The notes beneath the pieces were generated by a model. It was given only the letters and a program-made list of their open reading frames with translations. It was not told where the DNA came from and ran no database searches. Shown here piece by piece: positions 12,945 to 19,783 of a DNA stretch of 32,000 nucleotides. This DNA comes from Sphingobacterium thalpophilum (GTDB lineage: Bacteria; Bacteroidota; Bacteroidia; Sphingobacteriales; Sphingobacteriaceae), in the NCBI GenBank assembly GCA_943372995.1, contig CALSAQ010000003.1, positions 297,443 to 329,442 on the forward strand, given 5' to 3'. Within the stretch, counting starts at the first letter, position 1; every line of letters begins with the position of its first letter. Both the position numbers and the translations under genes were made by a program.

Positions 12945-14121
12945 CAGCAACACCAGGCAGTACTTTACCTTCCATATACTCTAATAAGGCACCACCACCG
13001 GTTGAAACATAAGAAACATCGTCGGTTAAATTAAATTTTGCCACCGCTGCAGCAGAATCTCCACCTCCTATTAAAGAAAAGGCACCGTTTTTTGTTGCAT
13101 CTACTACCGCAAGTGCTATTTGCTTTGTTCCATTTTCAAAATTACTCATCTCAAAAACACCCATAGGTCCATTCCATAAAATTGTTTTTGAATTAGCAAT
13201 TATTTCTTTGAAGGTTTTTATCGATTTTTCTCCAATATCTAAGCCCATCCAACCATCAGGTATAGAATCGTTGTTAGCACTTGATTTTTGGGCATCATTA
13301 TTAAATGCATCAGCTATAATTGAATCTACAGGTAATGCTAAGTTCACACCTTTAGATTTTGCTTTTTCTATTAAGCTAAGTGCTAAATCTAATTTGTCTG
13401 CTTCGACTAAAGAAGATCCGATGTTACCACCTAGAGCTTTTGCAAATGTATAGGCCATTCCCCCTCCAATAATAATAGAGTTTACATTATCTAGGAGTTT
13501 CTCTATTAATAATATTTTATCCGACACCTTTGCTCCACCCATAATTGCAGTAAACGGACGATCGGCATTATTCATTACCTTCTCTGCATTCTTTAATTCG
13601 TTTGCCATCACATAACCAAAGACCTTTGCATTAGGGAAGAATTTAGCTACAATGGTTGTAGAAGCATGTGCTCTGTGTGCTGTACCGAATGCATCGTTCA
13701 CATATACATCTCCATGTTTCGATAATTTCTCAGCAAAAATTTCATCTCCCTTTTCTTCTTCTTTATAAAATCTTAAATTTTCTAATAATAAAATTTCACC
13801 AGGTTTTAAGTTCGATGATTTCATAAATGCATCATCCGATATACAATCATCAGCAAAAATTACATTCGCCTTGGTTAAATCAGAAAGATGTTTTACTATA
13901 TGTTTTAGTGAATATTTTTCTACAGGACCTTCTTTTGGTCGACCTAAATGAGACATTAATACTACAGATCCACCATCAGATAAAATCTTTTTTATTGTTG
14001 GAAGTGCTGCCCTCATACGAGTATCATCAGTAATTTCAAAAGCAGCATTCAATGGGACATTAAAATCGACGCGGATTAAGGCTCTTTCCCCTTGGAAGTC
14101 AACAGAATCAATAGTTTTCAT
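12934..14121 (-). CDS. pgk: Phosphoglycerate kinase
   Basis: 395 aa and full-length colinear with Pgk. Motifs seen: [25 protein letters not shown], and GGGDSAAAV near the C-terminus. Confidence 0.95.
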
Positions 14122-14161
14122 TTCAAAATTATATTATGCGGCAAAAATAACATTAAAATTA

Positions 14162-14198
14162 ATATGTTAATATGTTAATGAGTGAATATGTTAATGAG
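14162..14198. repeat. Three direct copies of ATATGTTAAT between the motB-like stop and the pgk start; two copies extend to ATATGTTAATGAG
   Basis: ATATGTTAAT occurs at 14162-14171, 14170-14179 and 14186-14195. ATATGTTAATGAG occurs at 14170-14182 and 14186-14198. All were read directly from the sequence. Confidence 0.7.
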
Positions 14199-14206
14199 CA
14201 CACGAA

Positions 14207-14893
14207 CTAGTAGTGTATTCTTAGTACCACCCTCCTATTTATCGATTGGTTATTTGGTATTGGCTCCCCTTTTGGATTTCTATTAGGCACTACCGGTTGT
14301 GTATCTGCATACCCTGAAGCTTTTAGTCGACCAGGCTCCATACCTCTCTCAATTAAATACCTAACTACATTTGAAGCTCTTGCAACAGATAGCTCCCAGT
14401 TTGATGGGAAGTTTATATTATTTATAGGATTATCGTCGGTATGCCCCTCAACATCAATATGGAAATTAGCTTTTTTCTTTTTACTTACCGAATTAATAAT
14501 TTCGAAGATTTTGTCTACAATCTCCTTCCCTTCAGGTAATAATTTTGCATCCCCACTATTGTAAAAAGAATTACTCAAGAAACGCATATTAATCCCATTG
14601 TCTTTATTTTCAATCTCGAGATTTTTGTTCTTCACCTCTTTCATTAACATCGAATCGAGCTGATGTTTTATTTCACTTAATGGAGTAACAACTTCCTTAT
14701 TTTTTACTTTCGATCGGTAACTTGCTTTTACCCTATCCCAAACGTTCTGATCGACATTAGCTGAGGCAAATAATAAAATAAAGAAACAAAGTAGCAATGT
14801 AATCAAATCGGCATACGTAATTAACCAAAGCTCGCCTGGCTCTTCACCATGCAGCGACTTCATTACTTTACGTTTGTTATTATCCGACGACAT
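14207..14893 (-). CDS. MotB/PomB-type stator subunit (single TM with conserved Asp, plus an OmpA-like peptidoglycan-binding domain)
   Basis: 228 aa. The TM segment is WLITYADLITLLLCFFILLFA, with an Asp in the position of the proton-relay Asp of MotB. The C-terminal OmpA-like signature is VEGHTDDNP...SNWELSVARASNVVRYL...GYADTQP...NRRVVLRI. Its start overlaps the motA-like stop (TAATG at 14893). Confidence 0.85.
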   Translation of the reverse strand: MSSDNNKRKVMKSLHGEEPGELWLITYADLITLLLCFFILLFASANVDQNVWDRVKASYRSKVKNKEVVTPLSEIKHQLDSMLMKEVKNKNLEIENKDNGINMRFLSNSFYNSGDAKLLPEGKEIVDKIFEIINSVSKKKKANFHIDVEGHTDDNPINNINFPSNWELSVARASNVVRYLIERGMEPGRLKASGYADTQPVVPNRNPKGEPIPNNQSINRRVVLRIHY

Positions 14894-15720
14894 TATTTGT
14901 TTGAATTTTGTTTGCTATCGTTTTCCGATTCTCTACTAACAAATGACATTAATTGGTCTCTGATTACCAATGTTGGCTTATTCTCTTTAAGTAATAATAA
15001 TCCTTCTAGAATTATTATTTCTCTTCTTTGAGTAAGTGCGGCGTTGTATTTTATCTTCTTTGCTAATGGGATAAAAAATAAATTTGCAGAAGCAACTCCA
15101 TATAATGTACCAATTAATCCGGTAGAAATACCCGGACCAATATTCGAAGGGTCGTTCAAGTTATTTAACATCACAATCATCCCAAGTACTGTTCCCAACA
15201 TCCCGAATGCTGGTGCAGAATTAGCCATTGAGTGAAATACATCCGACATTTGTAATGCTTGGTTGTATTCTTTATCGATACTCGTTTCGCCCATTGTTCT
15301 AATATCATTAGACGAATAGTTCGTATTGTATAAATCGAACAACAATTTCACAAAAGTATCTTTCTCATTTTGTGAAATATGATTCATAAACTCTTTCTTA
15401 TCTTTTTTTATTCTATCGGCCCAACTCACTACCATTTCAATATCTTCATTAATAGAGATGGTTTTGTGTTTAGTCTGACTGAATAATCTTCCAAAATTTC
15501 TTAAAGCCGAAAAAACTACATTAATAGGATACATCACAAACATAGCTGCGAGCACTCCACCAAATACAATGAAAAAACCTGCAATATGTATAAAAGGATT
15601 TTTTAAGAAATTTGGCAAGTAATGTTCCAATCGTATTGCTCCTGCTGTATCCATAATACCTAATACAACCAAAGCAGTACAAATAACAAATCCTAAAAAT
15701 GTACCTAAAGAAAATTTCAT
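14893..15720 (-). CDS. MotA/PomA-type proton-channel stator subunit (4 TM)
   Basis: 275 aa. It has two N-terminal TMs, a cytoplasmic loop of about 100 aa, and then SAPAFGMLGTVLGMIVML and GPGISTGLIGTLYGVASANLFFIPLAKK. That is the MotA/TolQ/ExbB family signature, with prolines in both TM3 and TM4 as in MotA. Confidence 0.85.
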   Translation of the reverse strand: MKFSLGTFLGFVICTALVVLGIMDTAGAIRLEHYLPNFLKNPFIHIAGFFIVFGGVLAAMFVMYPINVVFSALRNFGRLFSQTKHKTISINEDIEMVVSWADRIKKDKKEFMNHISQNEKDTFVKLLFDLYNTNYSSNDIRTMGETSIDKEYNQALQMSDVFHSMANSAPAFGMLGTVLGMIVMLNNLNDPSNIGPGISTGLIGTLYGVASANLFFIPLAKKIKYNAALTQRREIIILEGLLLLKENKPTLVIRDQLMSFVSRESENDSKQNSNK

Positions 15721-15722
15721 AA

Positions 15723-16292
15723 TTATTTTTTTGAAGTAATATCTTTTAATTCTTTAGCTGTTGGTACTCTAATCTCTGGGTCTAGTTTTGCTGCCTGCAT
15801 CCAAAGCTCTTTTGCTTTTTCTTCGTTACCCATAACATATAAAACACTTCCCTTTAATGATAAGGCCTCAGCTGTTTCAACAATTTTTAATGCTTCATCT
15901 ATATAGTCGAGTGCCGAATTATAATCATCAACATATAAAAACTCTTGCGCTCTTCTATAATATTTCATAGACAGGTTAATTGCATCCATTGCCTCTCTAC
16001 TTACATTAAGTGTTCCATCTATTACATCTTTCTTAGACTTAGGATCGGTAGTCATGGTAAGCACAAACTCTTCATTACCTTTTCCCACAGCGTACTCAAT
16101 GGAAGCTGCGTTGTTTTTGTATTTCACATTTACAGGGTCTTTAACCGAATAAGCTCTACGAGCATTTTCTGAGATACGTTGTTGCTCGGCTAAATCCTCT
16201 ATAGTATATCTTGTTTCACATGAACACAAGACCAATACTGTAGCGAGTAAGCTATATTTAAGGCCTGTATATAAAGCTGATTCCATAACCAA
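15723..16292 (-). CDS. Putative TPR-repeat lipoprotein
   Basis: 189 aa. The N-terminus has a hydrophobic stretch ending in a lipobox-like LVLCSC. The C-terminal half is TPR-like (YYRRAQEFLYVDDYNSALDYIDEALKI...GNEEKAKELWMQAAKLDP). The true start may be the Met two codons downstream (16286). It overlaps the upstream gene by up to 35 nt. Confidence 0.6.
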   Translation of the reverse strand: MVMESALYTGLKYSLLATVLVLCSCETRYTIEDLAEQQRISENARRAYSVKDPVNVKYKNNAASIEYAVGKGNEEFVLTMTTDPKSKKDVIDGTLNVSREAMDAINLSMKYYRRAQEFLYVDDYNSALDYIDEALKIVETAEALSLKGSVLYVMGNEEKAKELWMQAAKLDPEIRVPTAKELKDITSKK

Positions 16293-17325
16293 AATTTTGT
16301 GTTTGAAGAGAGCTCTTCGTATTTGTAAAAACTGAATTAATAAGGAAATATCTGAAGTCTGTTTCCAGACTTAAGTTCTGTGTAAAGTTTATCATTAATC
16401 CCTGACGAACATAGGGCACCACTTCCGACGATATTAAAGTTCCTATCGACTGAAATGCTTCCATCCAATATTTTCTAGGTTGATCGTTTTTCTTTAAAAA
16501 GCATAACGAGTAATAAAATGCAGCATTAGGCATTATCTTGCCAAATTTCTGAAAATTTGTAGTATCAATATCAGAGGCAGTGAGCTGTAGATATGAAAGT
16601 CCTGTTTTAAATCCATAATACCCATTATGAGTACGGTTAAATGGTTGGCGCCATGCTACGTTTGCATCGTATAGCGAGGTAAGAAATTTATCACCTAAAT
16701 CAACATTATCAACAATATAATATTGTGTTTTTAAGAAAGTAATTCCTAAGCCTACTTGTAACTCCGCTCTTCGTGGGTTATATAGATCAGGGTTCGAATT
16801 AATCACTGTACTATATATCAATTCTTTTGACCTAGATTTTACAACTTGTAAATTAATTTGATAACCGGTAATATGATCATAGGTTAACTGTGCATATACT
16901 AAAGCTTGCAAAGAATACTTATCTATCACTTCACTCATTCTATTCTCATCGAGTATTAAACGCTCTAATGAATTCTGACGAGTGATGGTGAGATTAGAAT
17001 CTGTTCCGTTCACAATAGTAAGCGCTTTTTGTTTAAACTCAGGAGCCGAAACTACAGTAAAACCTGCACCTGCAAAAGTCCCTTCTAATCGGCTTCTAAT
17101 TTGTGAAGCTTCACTTTCATTGATAATGTATTCTGGATAGTCGAACTGTGCAATAGAAACTCTTTTATATAACAAATCATTCACCTTTACTTTATCAGCA
17201 ATCTCATCCATTAAATCGACTAATTCCAATTGCTTCCTAATGATTGGGTTGTTTTTATCTATTTGCGAATATGATGATACATTCCAAAAACTAAAAAACA
17301 GCACAACTATTATAATCTTTTTCAT
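16258..17325 (-). CDS. Secreted envelope protein: a periplasmic alpha/beta N-terminal domain plus a beta-strand-rich C-terminal half (possible outer-membrane beta-barrel)
   Basis: 355 aa. The signal peptide is MKKIIIVVLFFSFWNVSSYSQ. The C-terminal half shows alternating hydrophobic/polar strands (AELQVGLGITFLKT, GYYGFKTGLSYLQL, LMINFTQNLSLETDFRYFLI, NFGYGISFIYRP). No family was recognised with confidence. Confidence 0.5.
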   Translation of the reverse strand: MKKIIIVVLFFSFWNVSSYSQIDKNNPIIRKQLELVDLMDEIADKVKVNDLLYKRVSIAQFDYPEYIINESEASQIRSRLEGTFAGAGFTVVSAPEFKQKALTIVNGTDSNLTITRQNSLERLILDENRMSEVIDKYSLQALVYAQLTYDHITGYQINLQVVKSRSKELIYSTVINSNPDLYNPRRAELQVGLGITFLKTQYYIVDNVDLGDKFLTSLYDANVAWRQPFNRTHNGYYGFKTGLSYLQLTASDIDTTNFQKFGKIMPNAAFYYSLCFLKKNDQPRKYWMEAFQSIGTLISSEVVPYVRQGLMINFTQNLSLETDFRYFLINSVFTNTKSSLQTQNFGYGISFIYRP

Positions 17326-19160
17326 TAAGCTACAAGTTTTAAAGTTTTACGTATAGAGTCGATAATTACTTTTCTTGCACGATCTCTATCTTCTGGGGTT
17401 ACGGCATTTCCACTTTCCAATTCGGCTTTAATTAGCGACTGCTCACGAGGTGGACGTTGAACAATAATTTTGTTTTGAACATGACTACTAATTCCTGTAA
17501 GTGCGTTAACAATGGTAGTAGTATCAATATCTCTTAATGCAGTTTCTAGTTGTAAGTCGGTTAAGTAAACTACATTTTTAAATCCAACAAATTGTTGCTT
17601 AATATTATTTGCCAATTCTAAATCTTGCGATGCAATGGTACTAATTAATTGATCTTGATCTTCATCCTGCATTTGATCTAAAATATCAAGTATAGATTGT
17701 AATCCATCAAAAGCAACATTCTTCATACCTTTCACATCAATTGCTTTCTTAGAGAAATAGGTTGCCACTTCTCTATATATAGAAGAAGAGATAAAATCAA
17801 TTTTACTCATCTTCATTAAAATTGAAGAACGACGATTAATTTCTATCATGCTCAATACATTTTTACTTCTCTTACTTTCCAATTGAGCTAATAATATTGC
17901 TGATAAATTATCATCCTCTTCTTTAATCATATGAATAATTTGAGAATCGGTAATTTGATTTAAGAATTCAAAGAGGTCTTCATTTCTATCAGGCTCTGCA
18001 TTTAACGAAAGCAATTCTTTACTAAAATCTCTTGCCTCTTGATATTTATCATTATGTGATTTTAATTGATGATTGGAGATTGCCTGATTTAATTCCGAAT
18101 ATGCATTGTCGGACATAAAAGGTCTTAAGAAATTAATCAACTTCGGATTAACAGCATTAAGAGCATTTGCAGCTCTAACCCTTCCCTCTTCTGGATTAGT
18201 TAACATCCAAGTTTCAAACATACTCGCCACTTCTTTAGGATTACTAATTACAGATGTAATGACGTGTTGGCGATTAAATTCGTAATTGATTATATCTTCT
18301 GTTTGATAATTACTTCCACCAGAATCGTTTCCGTTTGGATATATAATATTTAAATCATTTGGATTAGCATTATTCCCTAATAATTTAGCTTCCTCATCAC
18401 CTTTAGATTTCTTATCCGAATCTTTACTCTTACGATAAAGTAAGTACGTAACAAATACTATTATGATAAAACAAAGAATTAGTAAAATAACAAACACATA
18501 CAAAAGAGTATTATCTGTTTCAGCTTTCTCTACTTTATTCTCTGTAGGTTGTACAGCTGGTCTTTGTTCAGGCTCTTTCTGCTGGAAGTAGTTAGGTACT
18601 GGATTAGCAGGTGCTGCATTATTTTTTGCTGTTAAATCTTCTAGGCCTTTTGGAAATACTGAACGTTTAATTTTTACAACATCCCCTTTCGTTTCATCAA
18701 TGGGTATAATTGATCGGATTAATGAATTGATAAAGTCAATATCCGAATTCGAATAAGTAGTATCTACAATTACATTTACATATAGGTATTCTACTTCCTC
18801 AATGCTATATGTGTAATTCTTAGTTGTGTCGACCTCAGAATCTTGATATCCTTTTGGAAGCACTGGCATTCCTGGTAAACGCTGTAAACTTTTTTTTCTC
18901 TTATTTGATGCTGTTGGCTTAATGACCTCCACATTCCCTTGCAACATATTTATATCGACCAAAAAAGTACTCGGAGCAAAGAATTTGGTTAATTCTTGAC
19001 GAACTACGATCTCAAAATTGTTGGCTTGATTTAATGGCTCTGGGTTTTGTCCAGTTTTGGGTTGATACAGGAAAGATTGACTACTGGCTTGTTCAATACA
19101 AACAACACACAGCAAAAAGCTCAAAAAGGTATTAATAAGTATCTTCTTTCCCTCGCTCAT
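17325..19160 (-). CDS. Two-TM protein with a FliF-like periplasmic segment fused to a cytoplasmic full-length FliG homologue (N, M and C domains)
   Basis: 611 aa. An N-terminal hydrophobic segment spans aa 7-27, a periplasmic region spans about aa 28-218, and a TM spans aa 219-242 (LLYVFVILLILCFIIIVFVTYLLY). The cytoplasmic region, about aa 325-608, is colinear with FliG. Matching stretches: GRVRAANALNAVNPKL (FliG-N style), LFEFLNQITDSQIIHMIKEEDDNLSAILLAQLESKRSKNVLSMIE (FliG-M), and FVGFKNVVYLTDLQLETALRDIDTTTIVNALTGIS...RPPREQSLIKAELE...ARKVIIDSIRK (FliG-C, including the torque-helix region). The comparison is against FliG sequences recalled from memory, not a computed search. Confidence 0.7.
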   Translation of the reverse strand: MSEGKKILINTFLSFLLCVVCIEQASSQSFLYQPKTGQNPEPLNQANNFEIVVRQELTKFFAPSTFLVDINMLQGNVEVIKPTASNKRKKSLQRLPGMPVLPKGYQDSEVDTTKNYTYSIEEVEYLYVNVIVDTTYSNSDIDFINSLIRSIIPIDETKGDVVKIKRSVFPKGLEDLTAKNNAAPANPVPNYFQQKEPEQRPAVQPTENKVEKAETDNTLLYVFVILLILCFIIIVFVTYLLYRKSKDSDKKSKGDEEAKLLGNNANPNDLNIIYPNGNDSGGSNYQTEDIINYEFNRQHVITSVISNPKEVASMFETWMLTNPEEGRVRAANALNAVNPKLINFLRPFMSDNAYSELNQAISNHQLKSHNDKYQEARDFSKELLSLNAEPDRNEDLFEFLNQITDSQIIHMIKEEDDNLSAILLAQLESKRSKNVLSMIEINRRSSILMKMSKIDFISSSIYREVATYFSKKAIDVKGMKNVAFDGLQSILDILDQMQDEDQDQLISTIASQDLELANNIKQQFVGFKNVVYLTDLQLETALRDIDTTTIVNALTGISSHVQNKIIVQRPPREQSLIKAELESGNAVTPEDRDRARKVIIDSIRKTLKLVA

Positions 19161-19378
19161 AATTTATCAATGAAATAGTCGATTGGTCTAGTTAATTAGG
19201 GTACTACACATTATAGCCGCTTTTAAAAATATGTATATTTTATATAAAAACAAACATTTTTGAAGCTGCTACAAGCCAATAAATGCCATTAAAGCCCTTT
19301 TTAGACTACTGAAACATGAATAAACAATTAGAAAGAATTGAAAATCAGCAGGTCATAGGCATAATCAAAACCAAAATA

Positions 19379-19783
19379 TTATTCCTTGTCTTCCCAACTT
19401 GATTGGATATTATCTATTTCTCTTCTTTCTTTTTTAGTAGGGCGGCCTGTTCCACGGTCTCTTTTCAAAACAGGGGTTGTAAAAACTGAATGAAACTTAG
19501 GAGCATCATCTTTTGGTGATAAATCTTCAAAATATTTTTGAACTGAACTTGCATCTAGTCTTTTTTCGAGTAATTCGAGAACTTTAACAACTTTCTTTTG
19601 TTGATCTTTTTGAATATGATAAACATCGCCAACTTTAACCACATAAGATGCTTTTATACTTTGCTGGTCTAGTTTAATTTTTCCAGCCTTACATGCATCT
19701 GTAGCTAAACTTCTGGTTTTAAAGATTCGAATGGCCCATAAATATTTATCGATTCTGAGCTTTTCATTTTTTTCAGTTGTCAT
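19379..19783 (-). CDS. S4-domain RNA-binding protein (Hsp15/HslR-like)
   Basis: 134 aa. The S4 motif is RIDKYLWAIRIFKTRSLATDACKAGKIKLDQQSIKASYVVKVGDVYHI, followed by a basic C-terminal tail. Confidence 0.8.
   Translation of the reverse strand: MTTEKNEKLRIDKYLWAIRIFKTRSLATDACKAGKIKLDQQSIKASYVVKVGDVYHIQKDQQKKVVKVLELLEKRLDASSVQKYFEDLSPKDDAPKFHSVFTTPVLKRDRGTGRPTKKERREIDNIQSSWEDKE

Follow-up and report, generated by a model that had tools for sequence, protein, structure and literature searches.

A flagellar-lineage MotAB stator pair encoded with a FliF-FliG fusion in a bacterium without a flagellum

What does a flagellar-type stator do in a bacterium that has no flagellum? This question is raised by a locus of Sphingobacterium thalpophilum (assembly GCA_943372995.1), which lies in a stretch of 32,000 nucleotides of contig CALSAQ010000003.1 (positions 297,443 to 329,442) that was analysed as a whole and is referred to here as the window. 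Two adjacent genes at 14207-15720 of the window encode a MotA-like and a MotB-like protein, and an earlier note, made from the letters of the window and a list of its open reading frames (ORFs), had described them as a flagellar-type stator pair with intact catalytic hallmarks, dedicated to a FliG-like protein encoded upstream. We find that the pair is a flagellar-lineage stator by sequence, fold and phylogeny, that it is encoded in a cassette of five genes together with a FliF-FliG fusion, and that it probably powers an undescribed cell-envelope machine. Our preferred reading, to which we assign a probability of about 0.68, is that the two proteins form a working stator of the MotA5MotB2 type and of flagellar lineage (TGI4, PomAB/MotCD-like), which a five-gene cassette independent of flagella has recruited or retained as its power unit.

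A flagellar-lineage stator by sequence, fold and phylogeny

Family searches place both proteins with flagellar stators. The MotA-like protein matches PF01618 (MotA_ExbB; E 2.5e-22), and the MotB-like protein matches both PF13677 (MotB_plug; 1e-15, 57.5 bits against a cut-off of 24) and PF00691 (OmpA; 2.5e-17, 63.5 bits). The top NCBIfam models for the first are all flagellar, namely PRK09109 (4e-39), MotP (NF005383; 1e-37) and PomA (2.7e-30), and those for the second are MotD (NF006541; 1.7e-44), a MotB subfamily (7e-41) and MotS (NF005382; 1.1e-38). The NCBIfam TolQ model matches the MotA-like protein at E 1.4e-5, with 24.9 bits against a cut-off of 221, and the ExbB model at E 3e-3. When all PDB sequences were searched with the MotA-like protein, only flagellar MotA and PomA chains were recovered (E 2.7e-27 to 3.2e-11), and no ExbB, TolQ or ZorA chain appeared at E < 1; for the MotB-like protein flagellar MotB, PomB and MotS chains are the best matches (~1e-26), with ZorB at 1e-4. 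Searches with the PADLOC profiles gave no ZorA match for the MotA-like protein at E <= 0.01, and the ZorB profiles match the MotB-like protein at E 6e-22, a much poorer match than that of the flagellar MotB models.

The predicted structures point the same way. An AlphaFold2 model of the MotA-like monomer, built from 59 sequences with a mean predicted local distance difference test score (pLDDT) of 84.9, contains transmembrane (TM) helices TM1 (residues 5-25) and TM2 (46-63), cytoplasmic helices at 66-81, 90-118, 122-132 and 137-~165, a long TM4 and a C-terminal helix, and its TM3 is unbroken, lying in a continuous helix of residues 137-186. When this model is searched against the PDB with Foldseek, flagellar MotA and PomA chains fill the first 23 ranks (E 5e-11 to 9e-7, TMt <=0.89, root-mean-square deviation ~2 A over 213-222 columns). 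TolQ and ExbB enter the list only from E >= 0.012, four orders of magnitude later and with TM scores of 0.2-0.5, and no ZorA or GldL chain is among the top 50. The model of the MotB-like protein (pLDDT 77) has a TM helix at 21-45 and a plug helix at 49-63, followed by an alpha/beta domain; its best match is the C-terminal PomB fragment 3wpw (TMt 0.86), the periplasmic domains of MotS and Helicobacter pylori MotB are also found, and ZorB chains stand at ranks 45-47.

Hydropathy and conservation locate the functional residues within these folds. A hydropathy scan places TM1, TM2 and TM4 of the MotA-like protein at residues 5-23, 44-62 and 202-220; TM3 (~168-188) falls under the simple threshold, being weakly hydrophobic as is typical of the family, and the cytoplasmic stretch between TM2 and TM3 is ~105 residues long. 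The motif SAPAFGMLGTV begins at residue 168 and FFIPLAKK at residue 215, which aligns P170 with E. coli P173 and P218 with E. coli P222, and both prolines are unchanged across 59 relatives, as is the glycine zipper G173/G176/G180. In the MotB-like protein the scan finds one TM segment, at residues 24-42, which contains D29; this residue is kept in 119/119 full-length relatives and is found in every type of the cassette described below. The plug positions V47, D48, N50, W52 and K56 are strongly conserved in the alignment columns of the relatives, and in the peptidoglycan-binding domain G150, D153, N165, W166, L168, S169, R172 and A173 are unchanged in 121/121, with H151, T152 and E167 slightly variable. 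The motA gene is under purifying selection, with a ratio of nonsynonymous to synonymous substitution rates (dN/dS) of 0.07-0.09 against orthologues of 82% and 56% identity; for the MotB pairs dS is saturated and yields no ratio. The one-base overlap of the two genes suggests that their translation may be coupled.

The traits that define flagellar ion transporters (FIT) of the TGI4 type, as opposed to the ExbB/TolQ-type (GIT) motors, have been set out by Puente-Lelievre et al. (2025; PMC12505986), where the special structures are termed 'flagellar-specific'. The pair has the four-helix cytoplasmic domain between TM2 and TM3 (in the AlphaFold2 model), the transmembrane 'square fold' of four helices with a continuous TM3, the plug and linker beside the TM helix of the B subunit, and the expanded OmpA-like peptidoglycan-binding domain of that subunit, and at the FIT/GIT split of the phylogeny it stands with the flagellar stators (100/97). 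The linker is short, in a protein of 228 residues as a whole. Two further traits are absent: of the rotor-contact charges (R90 and E98 in E. coli MotA) the second is replaced, by N113, and the genome encodes no flagellum for the stator to work in.

The phylogeny rests on a maximum-likelihood tree (LG+C20+F+G4) of 71 MotA-family rows, with four ExbB/TolQ-type outgroup rows and no ZorA row. The ExbB/TolQ-type rows split from all MotA-type rows, the pair included. Cassette MotAs fall into one clade at 99/95, which comprises those in the gene order of the window (cas1), those in the order TPR-fusion-TPR-MotA-MotB (cas2), and those of Fibrobacterales and Sericytochromatia; cas1 and cas2 together are supported at 100/100. 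This clade lies within a 39-row clade (100/98) that also holds stand-alone motAB genes of alphaproteobacterial metagenome-assembled genomes (MAGs), Melioribacteraceae and others, and the 39-row clade is placed among stators in flagellar gene context. An alternative tree in which the cassette clade stands outside all flagellar-context rows is only 3.3 log-likelihood units worse and is not rejected (approximately unbiased test, p = 0.41), so that the nesting is not statistically firm.

The stand-alone relatives have housekeeping neighbours, and at least one of their genomes (G402) encodes FlhA. The nearest of the non-cassette relatives are stand-alone motAB genes in alphaproteobacterial or Rickettsiales-like MAGs (L121, L122 7481-9466; L037-L044); the motAB genes of L121 and L122 directly follow a GcrA-family gene and have no FliG nearby.

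The periplasmic loop between TM1 and TM2 carries an insertion in 18/18 cas1 and cas2 rows; its length is 11 residues in 11/12 cas1 rows and 4 in the remaining one (L129), and 8 residues in the cas2 rows. No such insertion occurs in the rows of flagellar or unknown context or in those of other cassettes; one flagellar-context row (L136) has an unrelated insertion elsewhere in the segment. Between the window clade and Balneolaceae, MotB is the better conserved subunit, with 48-54% identity versus 33-37% for MotA, which runs opposite to the family-wide trend (PMC12505986).

Most of what the earlier note had read in the pair is borne out. Its coordinates and reading frames were correct on re-reading, as was the TAATG overlap; the hydropathy scan and the AlphaFold model together uphold four TM helices and a large loop between TM2 and TM3; the prolines that it saw in both channel helices are the invariant P170 and P218; and the alignment at D29 and the PF00691 match confirm a TM aspartate and a complete OmpA-like domain in the B subunit. 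Loss of that aspartate among orthologues, which it had named as counter-evidence, was not seen in any of the 119 relatives, the plug helix that it proposed to check is conserved, and the tree that it called for does not put the pair in the ExbB/TolQ clade (the tree having no ZorA row). The phrase 'intact catalytic hallmarks' holds for the prolines, the aspartate, the plug and the peptidoglycan-binding motifs, but not for the rotor-facing acid of the E98 type, which is gone. That the pair is of flagellar type, and not of the ExbBD, TolQR or Zorya type, is a point on which five independent tests agree (NCBIfam, PADLOC, PDB sequence search, Foldseek and the maximum-likelihood tree).

ExbBD and TolQR belong to the same MotA_ExbB superfamily and share the 5:2 rotary principle, and the partner proteins of ExbB and TolQ lack OmpA domains. 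A motor of the ExbB/TolQ (GIT) type was considered for the pair and rejected on the weak TolQ and ExbB profile scores, the OmpA domain of the partner and the low Foldseek TM scores.

Linkage to the fusion gene and the genomes that carry it

The host genome (2.95 Mb, 99.99% complete) contains no match to FlhA/FHIPEP (PF00771), flagellin (PF00669), rod proteins (PF00460) or FliMN_C (PF01052), and its only FliG_C domain is that of a 611-residue FliF-FliG fusion encoded in the same cassette as the stator. The cassette consists of five tightly packed genes on the minus strand, running from 19160 to 14207, for the 611-residue fusion, a 355-residue protein, a 189-residue TPR protein, and the MotA-like and MotB-like proteins. 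The fusion matches PF01706 (5.7e-15), PF14841 (1.2e-8) and PF08345 (1.1e-5), and none of the PADLOC profiles.

In a sample of 401 genomes of the phylum, MotA and the fusion protein served as queries in separate searches, and some of the loci were fetched for checking. Approximately 62 long FliF-FliG fusion ORFs (~590-710 residues) were listed, and all except two have a MotA of the cassette type within ~3.5 kb; the two unlinked ones (G023, G061) are on other contigs of fragmented assemblies. Viewed from the stator, a long FliG-fusion ORF adjoins MotA in 20/20 cas1 and 36/37 cas2 loci, and in ~5 further loci of a third gene order. Loci of the third order belong to family f36 (G161:C21, G305:C11, G233:C13, G357:C56 and G065:C19) and have MotA upstream of the fusion, with a gap that is large enough for MotB.

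The main carrier family, going by source names, is Balneolaceae. Two of the carriers (G136 and G372) encode FlhA, and each of these has a third motAB, ~9-10 kb from flhA; ~8 kb upstream of this flagellar motAB, G136 has a canonical FliG (~350 residues). Three others (G240, G252 and G184) have cassettes and no FlhA. The separate flagellar motAB genes of the flagellated carriers indicate that the cassette stator is a paralogue held apart from the flagellar stator and, taken with the linkage to the fusion gene, suggest that the MotAB pair most likely serves the fusion rotor alone. The dedication to the upstream FliG-like protein that the earlier note had proposed is supported by gene order and by the carriers' separate flagellar stators.

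The cassette is also present in Sericytochromatia MAGs and unclassified MAGs, and a partial copy lies on a Fibrobacterales contig. Plain tblastn with the window fusion protein missed the divergent Sericytochromatia fusions, and a profile hidden Markov model recovered them. Close relatives (52-94% identity) come from ~20-30 metagenomic clusters and one Sphingobacteriales MAG (L035, 82%). The cas2 MotB proteins of G136 (L125:7244-9049) and G240 (L128:10512-12248) are 578-601 residues long and have C-terminal SPOR domains (PF05036; E 8e-12 and 1e-17); that of G184 is short, at 220 residues. SPOR domains bind septal or denuded peptidoglycan.

The coordinates of the pair, its functional residues, the other cassette genes and the other motors of the host are collected in Table 1. 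The two other MotA_ExbB genes of the host are of the TolQ/ExbB type and have partners of the TolR/ExbD type; counting the GldM-associated motor, the ion-driven motor systems in the envelope of the host number four and belong to at least three kinds. A profile built from the 355-residue protein and its cas1 orthologues finds members of this family between the fusion gene and the TPR gene. In a 56%-identical relative on a 3.28-Mb contig (L120:6382-7468), the counterpart of this protein consists of two overlapping ORFs of 229 and 153 residues (229 and 86 in the gene calls), which is either a frameshift or a true split. At the other end of the cassette only 85 nt (14122-14206) separate the motB stop from the start of the co-directional pgk gene; a simple scan found no convincing terminator in this interval, and transcription may read through from motB into pgk. 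Scans for promoters and terminators across 13900-19500 gave 27 and 3 hits, against 25.8 and 2.4 in shuffled sequence, and the promoter type used may not apply to this host.

Table 1. Features of the stator pair, the cassette and the other ion-driven motors of the host (window positions, except where a genome and contig are given)
Feature	Position	Strand	Remarks
motA-like gene, 275 aa	14893..15720	-	A subunit of 5:2-type stator; four TM helices and four-helix cytoplasmic domain
motB-like gene, 228 aa	14207..14893	-	B subunit; TM helix with Asp, plug helix and OmpA-like peptidoglycan-binding domain
motA/motB overlap, TAATG	14893..14897	-	motA stop TAA and motB start ATG share base 14893 (sequence AAATAATGTCG)
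MotA P170 codon	15211..15213	-	E. coli P173, PomA P151; start of TM3
MotA P218 codon	15067..15069	-	E. coli P222; in TM4
MotA segment K105 to N113	15382..15408	-	Rotor-facing helix; K105 = E. coli R90, N113 = E. coli E98
MotA TM1-TM2 periplasmic loop insertion, ~residues 27-41	15598..15642	-	Specific to Bacteroidota cassette clades
MotB D29 codon	14807..14809	-	Ion-binding Asp; E. coli D32, PomB D24
MotB plug helix, residues 47-63	14705..14755	-	PF13677; AlphaFold2 helix 49-63
MotB OmpA-like peptidoglycan-binding domain	14213..14620	-	Motifs G150-H-T-D153 and N165-W-E-L-S-x-x-R172-A
FliF-FliG fusion gene, 611 aa	17325..19160	-	Signal/TM, FliF-C-like periplasmic part, TM, FliG_M, FliG_C; presumed rotor
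355-aa cassette protein	16258..17325	-	No Pfam family; conserved in cas1 cassettes
TPR protein, 189 aa	15723..16292	-	TPR_1/TPR_2, E ~1e-9; ends 2 nt before motA start
ExbB/TolQ-type motor loci	G000:C12:31795-34712 (L001); G000:C3:115333-118698 (L003)		One has two TolR/ExbD-like genes
GldM (type IX secretion/gliding motor)	G000:C4:72501-74015		On a contig other than that of the stator

The proposed machine and its alternatives

The surfaces by which a stator drives its rotor are altered on both sides. In the rotor-facing helix of the MotA-like protein the position of E. coli R90 is occupied by K105, with K or R in 12/12 cas1 rows; the position of E98 is acidic in 1/12 cas1 and 0/6 cas2 rows, versus D or E in 15/15 flagellar-context stators. 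A HMMER alignment to PDB chains gives the same register for both positions. Canonical FliG proteins keep the EHPQR motif, K264, R281 and R297, and are acidic at 288 and usually at 289 as well. In the cassette fusions R281 is kept in 14/15 and there is a Glu at the D289 position in 10/11 cas1 and cas2 fusions, and D288, K264, R297 and the FliM-binding EHPQR motif are missing. The 611-residue fusion of the window follows this pattern, with the torque-helix Arg (E. coli FliG R281) and the Glu at the D289 position kept and EHPQR, K264, D288 and R297 gone; this pattern is consistent with the absence of FliM and FliN. Since MotA has lost its E98-type acid and the rotor has lost FliG charges, both partners appear to have been simplified together, and the losses as a set, from MotA E98 to FliG D288, K264, R297 and EHPQR, fit a motor that works without a switch complex.

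As for the ion, the threonines T158, T185 and T186 of PomA are described as a signature of Na+ stators, and H+ stators have Ala in place of the first two (PMC10374538). The window MotA is mixed at these positions (T177/G204/T205), and the Balneolaceae cassettes have T/T/T.

From the homology, fold, residue conservation, gene linkage, lack of a flagellum and purifying selection established here we infer, by homology with stators of solved structure, that the subunits assemble 5:2, that ions flow through them, that the stator touches the fusion protein and that rotation results. A MotA pentamer would surround a MotB dimer, whose plug helix would close the channel until the complex docks, and the OmpA-like domain would then anchor MotB to peptidoglycan. 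Ions would pass by MotB D29 and the cleft between TM3 and TM4 of MotA (P170, G173xxG176xxxG180, T177, T205 and P218), and their passage would rotate the MotA ring around MotB. The four-helix cytoplasmic domain of MotA could then push the FliG_C torque helix of the fusion, which is encoded three genes upstream, turning or loading its ring across a simplified interface in which the pair formed by MotA K105 (E. coli R90) and the rotor Glu (E. coli FliG D289) is kept. A more specific proposal, which we put forward tentatively and at slightly less than even odds, is that the cassette encodes a flagellum-independent, switch-less rotary machine, in which the stator turns a self-anchored fusion ring and thereby, by way of the ring's periplasmic part and the two co-encoded envelope proteins, does work on the cell wall or outer membrane. 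Stator and rotor would both have had the charges at their interface rewired. One place where such a machine might act is the division septum, as the SPOR domains of the paralogous stator hint.

Several observations weigh against a working stator that serves as the power unit of the cassette. The NCBIfam equivalog cut-offs for MotA, MotB, PomA, MotP, MotS and MotD are all missed widely (134.2 versus 237 bits for PRK09109, 152.4 versus 283 for MotD), and because the scores are about half of the cut-offs the pair does not belong to the MotCD or MotPS families of NCBIfam. The loss of the acid that flagellar stators use against FliG R281 may mean that the contact differs or is weak. Two unclassified MAGs (L079:4174-9289 and L092:5216-10655) have a full cassette, consisting of the fusion, a 367-376-residue protein, a 221-residue protein (with a TPR match in L079), MotA and MotB, and their MotAs group with Calditrichota and Guyparkeria stators outside the main cassette clade; this placement may reflect exchange of the stator, or a cassette older than the tree implies. 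Finally, the cassette was found in 0/7 other sampled genomes of the window's family and in none of its class among the 401 genomes, and it is dispensable for most relatives.

The main rival is a linear force transducer, in which the peptidoglycan-anchored MotAB would pass force through the periplasm to the 355-residue protein and the TPR lipoprotein, in the manner of Tol-Pal or Ton, and the fusion would be a static scaffold or docking ring. The loss of the E98-type acid and the reduced FliG charges are what such a device might show, and several features draw attention to the periplasm: its subunit MotB is the better conserved of the two, the clade-specific insertion sits in the periplasmic loop, the paralogous cas2 MotB carries SPOR domains, and the two envelope proteins are always co-encoded in cas1. 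We nevertheless regard this explanation as unlikely, given that the complete four-helix torque domain of MotA is kept, is predicted with high confidence and is under purifying selection, that nearly all fusions retain FliG_C along with one acidic residue and the torque-helix Arg, and that MotB is fixed to peptidoglycan and has no extended partner domain of the TonB or TolA kind.

The cassette could instead be the decaying relic of a lost flagellum, without present function, and flagellated lineages do exist in the phylum; stray rotor proteins are also reported to be common in non-motile genomes (PMC12199754). However, all five genes are intact and tightly coupled, motA has the low dN/dS given above, the residues of the channel, plug and peptidoglycan-binding domain are conserved in ~120 relatives, G136 and G372 keep the cassette alongside a complete flagellar system that has a stator to itself, and the architecture of the fusion is not that of a flagellar-operon fragment. 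Frequent frameshifts or stops among the orthologues, or a dN/dS near 1, were not seen, and we judge decay to be very improbable.

Still less probable is an auxiliary stator for a flagellum encoded elsewhere, a second set resembling MotCD or MotPS. The best NCBIfam models, the MotD equivalog and PRK09109 ('flagellar motor protein'), would suit it, as would the stand-alone motAB pairs that are the nearest non-cassette relatives and occur at least once in a FlhA-bearing genome, but the host lacks FlhA, flagellin, rod and FliMN and has its sole FliG domain in the adjacent fusion. Least probable of all is an anti-phage sensor motor like Zorya, since the ZorB profile and chain matches of the MotB-like protein are outscored by far by flagellar MotB models, the 275-residue A subunit has neither a ZorA match (by profile or in the Foldseek top 50) nor a long tail, and the neighbours are the FliG fusion, the TPR protein and pgk rather than nuclease or helicase genes; ZorAB was rejected as a candidate on these grounds and on the lack of ZorC/ZorD or ZorE-type neighbours.

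Significance and relation to known systems

If the pair is the working power unit that we propose, the locus bears on how stators are classified and where they came from. At present FIT stators are defined through their association with flagella, and here all four structural traits occur in a non-flagellar cassette, in ~60/401 genomes of one phylum. The text of the FIT/GIT classification nowhere mentions Bacteroidota (PMC12505986), a survey has noted rotor proteins in non-motile genomes (PMC12199754), and a literature search, which did not extend to all journals, found neither the cassette described nor any report of FIT stators in Bacteroidota that lack flagella. A cassette of this kind sets the core that generates torque (the stator and FliG) apart from the flagellum. 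The cassette offers a minimal natural rotor-stator pair for structural work, and a natural experiment on which rotor-stator charges are required, with one pair kept and one lost. A further question that it touches is which came first, the flagellar motor or a simpler envelope motor: should the cassette clade prove to be the sister of the flagellar stators and not one of their offshoots, it could represent a relative of the pre-flagellar motor that has survived. Culturable Balneolaceae carriers would make this question of origin open to experiment.

There is precedent for a fused FliF-FliG partner. The FliF-FliG fusion of Chlamydiaceae is ~330 residues long and has only a FliG_M-like part, with no adjacent MotAB reported (Bergeron 2016, PMC4768692), and engineered Salmonella FliF-FliG fusions, in the account cited there, still assemble and rotate. 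A second MotAB outside the flagellar programme is known as well: the Vibrio fischeri MotA2B2 is unneeded for swimming and lies outside the FlrA flagellar regulon (Brennan et al. 2013, PMC3948606). ExbBD and TolQR have PF01618 in common with the pair, and the host has two ExbB/TolQ-type pairs of its own. The best-scoring curated models are those of the Pseudomonas-type MotCD and the Bacillus MotPS, systems that drive flagella.

The closest known structures are the four-helix (TGI4) stators Vibrio PomA5B2 (8BRD, 8ZYV), Clostridium sporogenes MotAB (6YSF, 8UCS) and Paenibacillus MotA1B1 (9LU9), at 24-30% identity and TMt <=0.89. The pair differs from these flagellar stators in that its genome has no flagellum and its genes stand in a cassette with the fusion, the 355-residue protein and the TPR protein, in the loss of the E98/E96-type acid, in the TM1-TM2 loop insertion and in the short MotB linker; of the three threonines of the PomA Na+ site (T158, T185 and T186) two are kept, the window residues being T177, G204 and T205. 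What the pair and the TGI4 stators have in common is an A subunit with four TM helices, a four-helix cytoplasmic domain, an unbroken TM3, the TM3 proline, the glycine zipper and the TM4 proline, a B subunit with a TM aspartate, a plug and an OmpA-type domain, and A and B genes that are adjacent and overlap.

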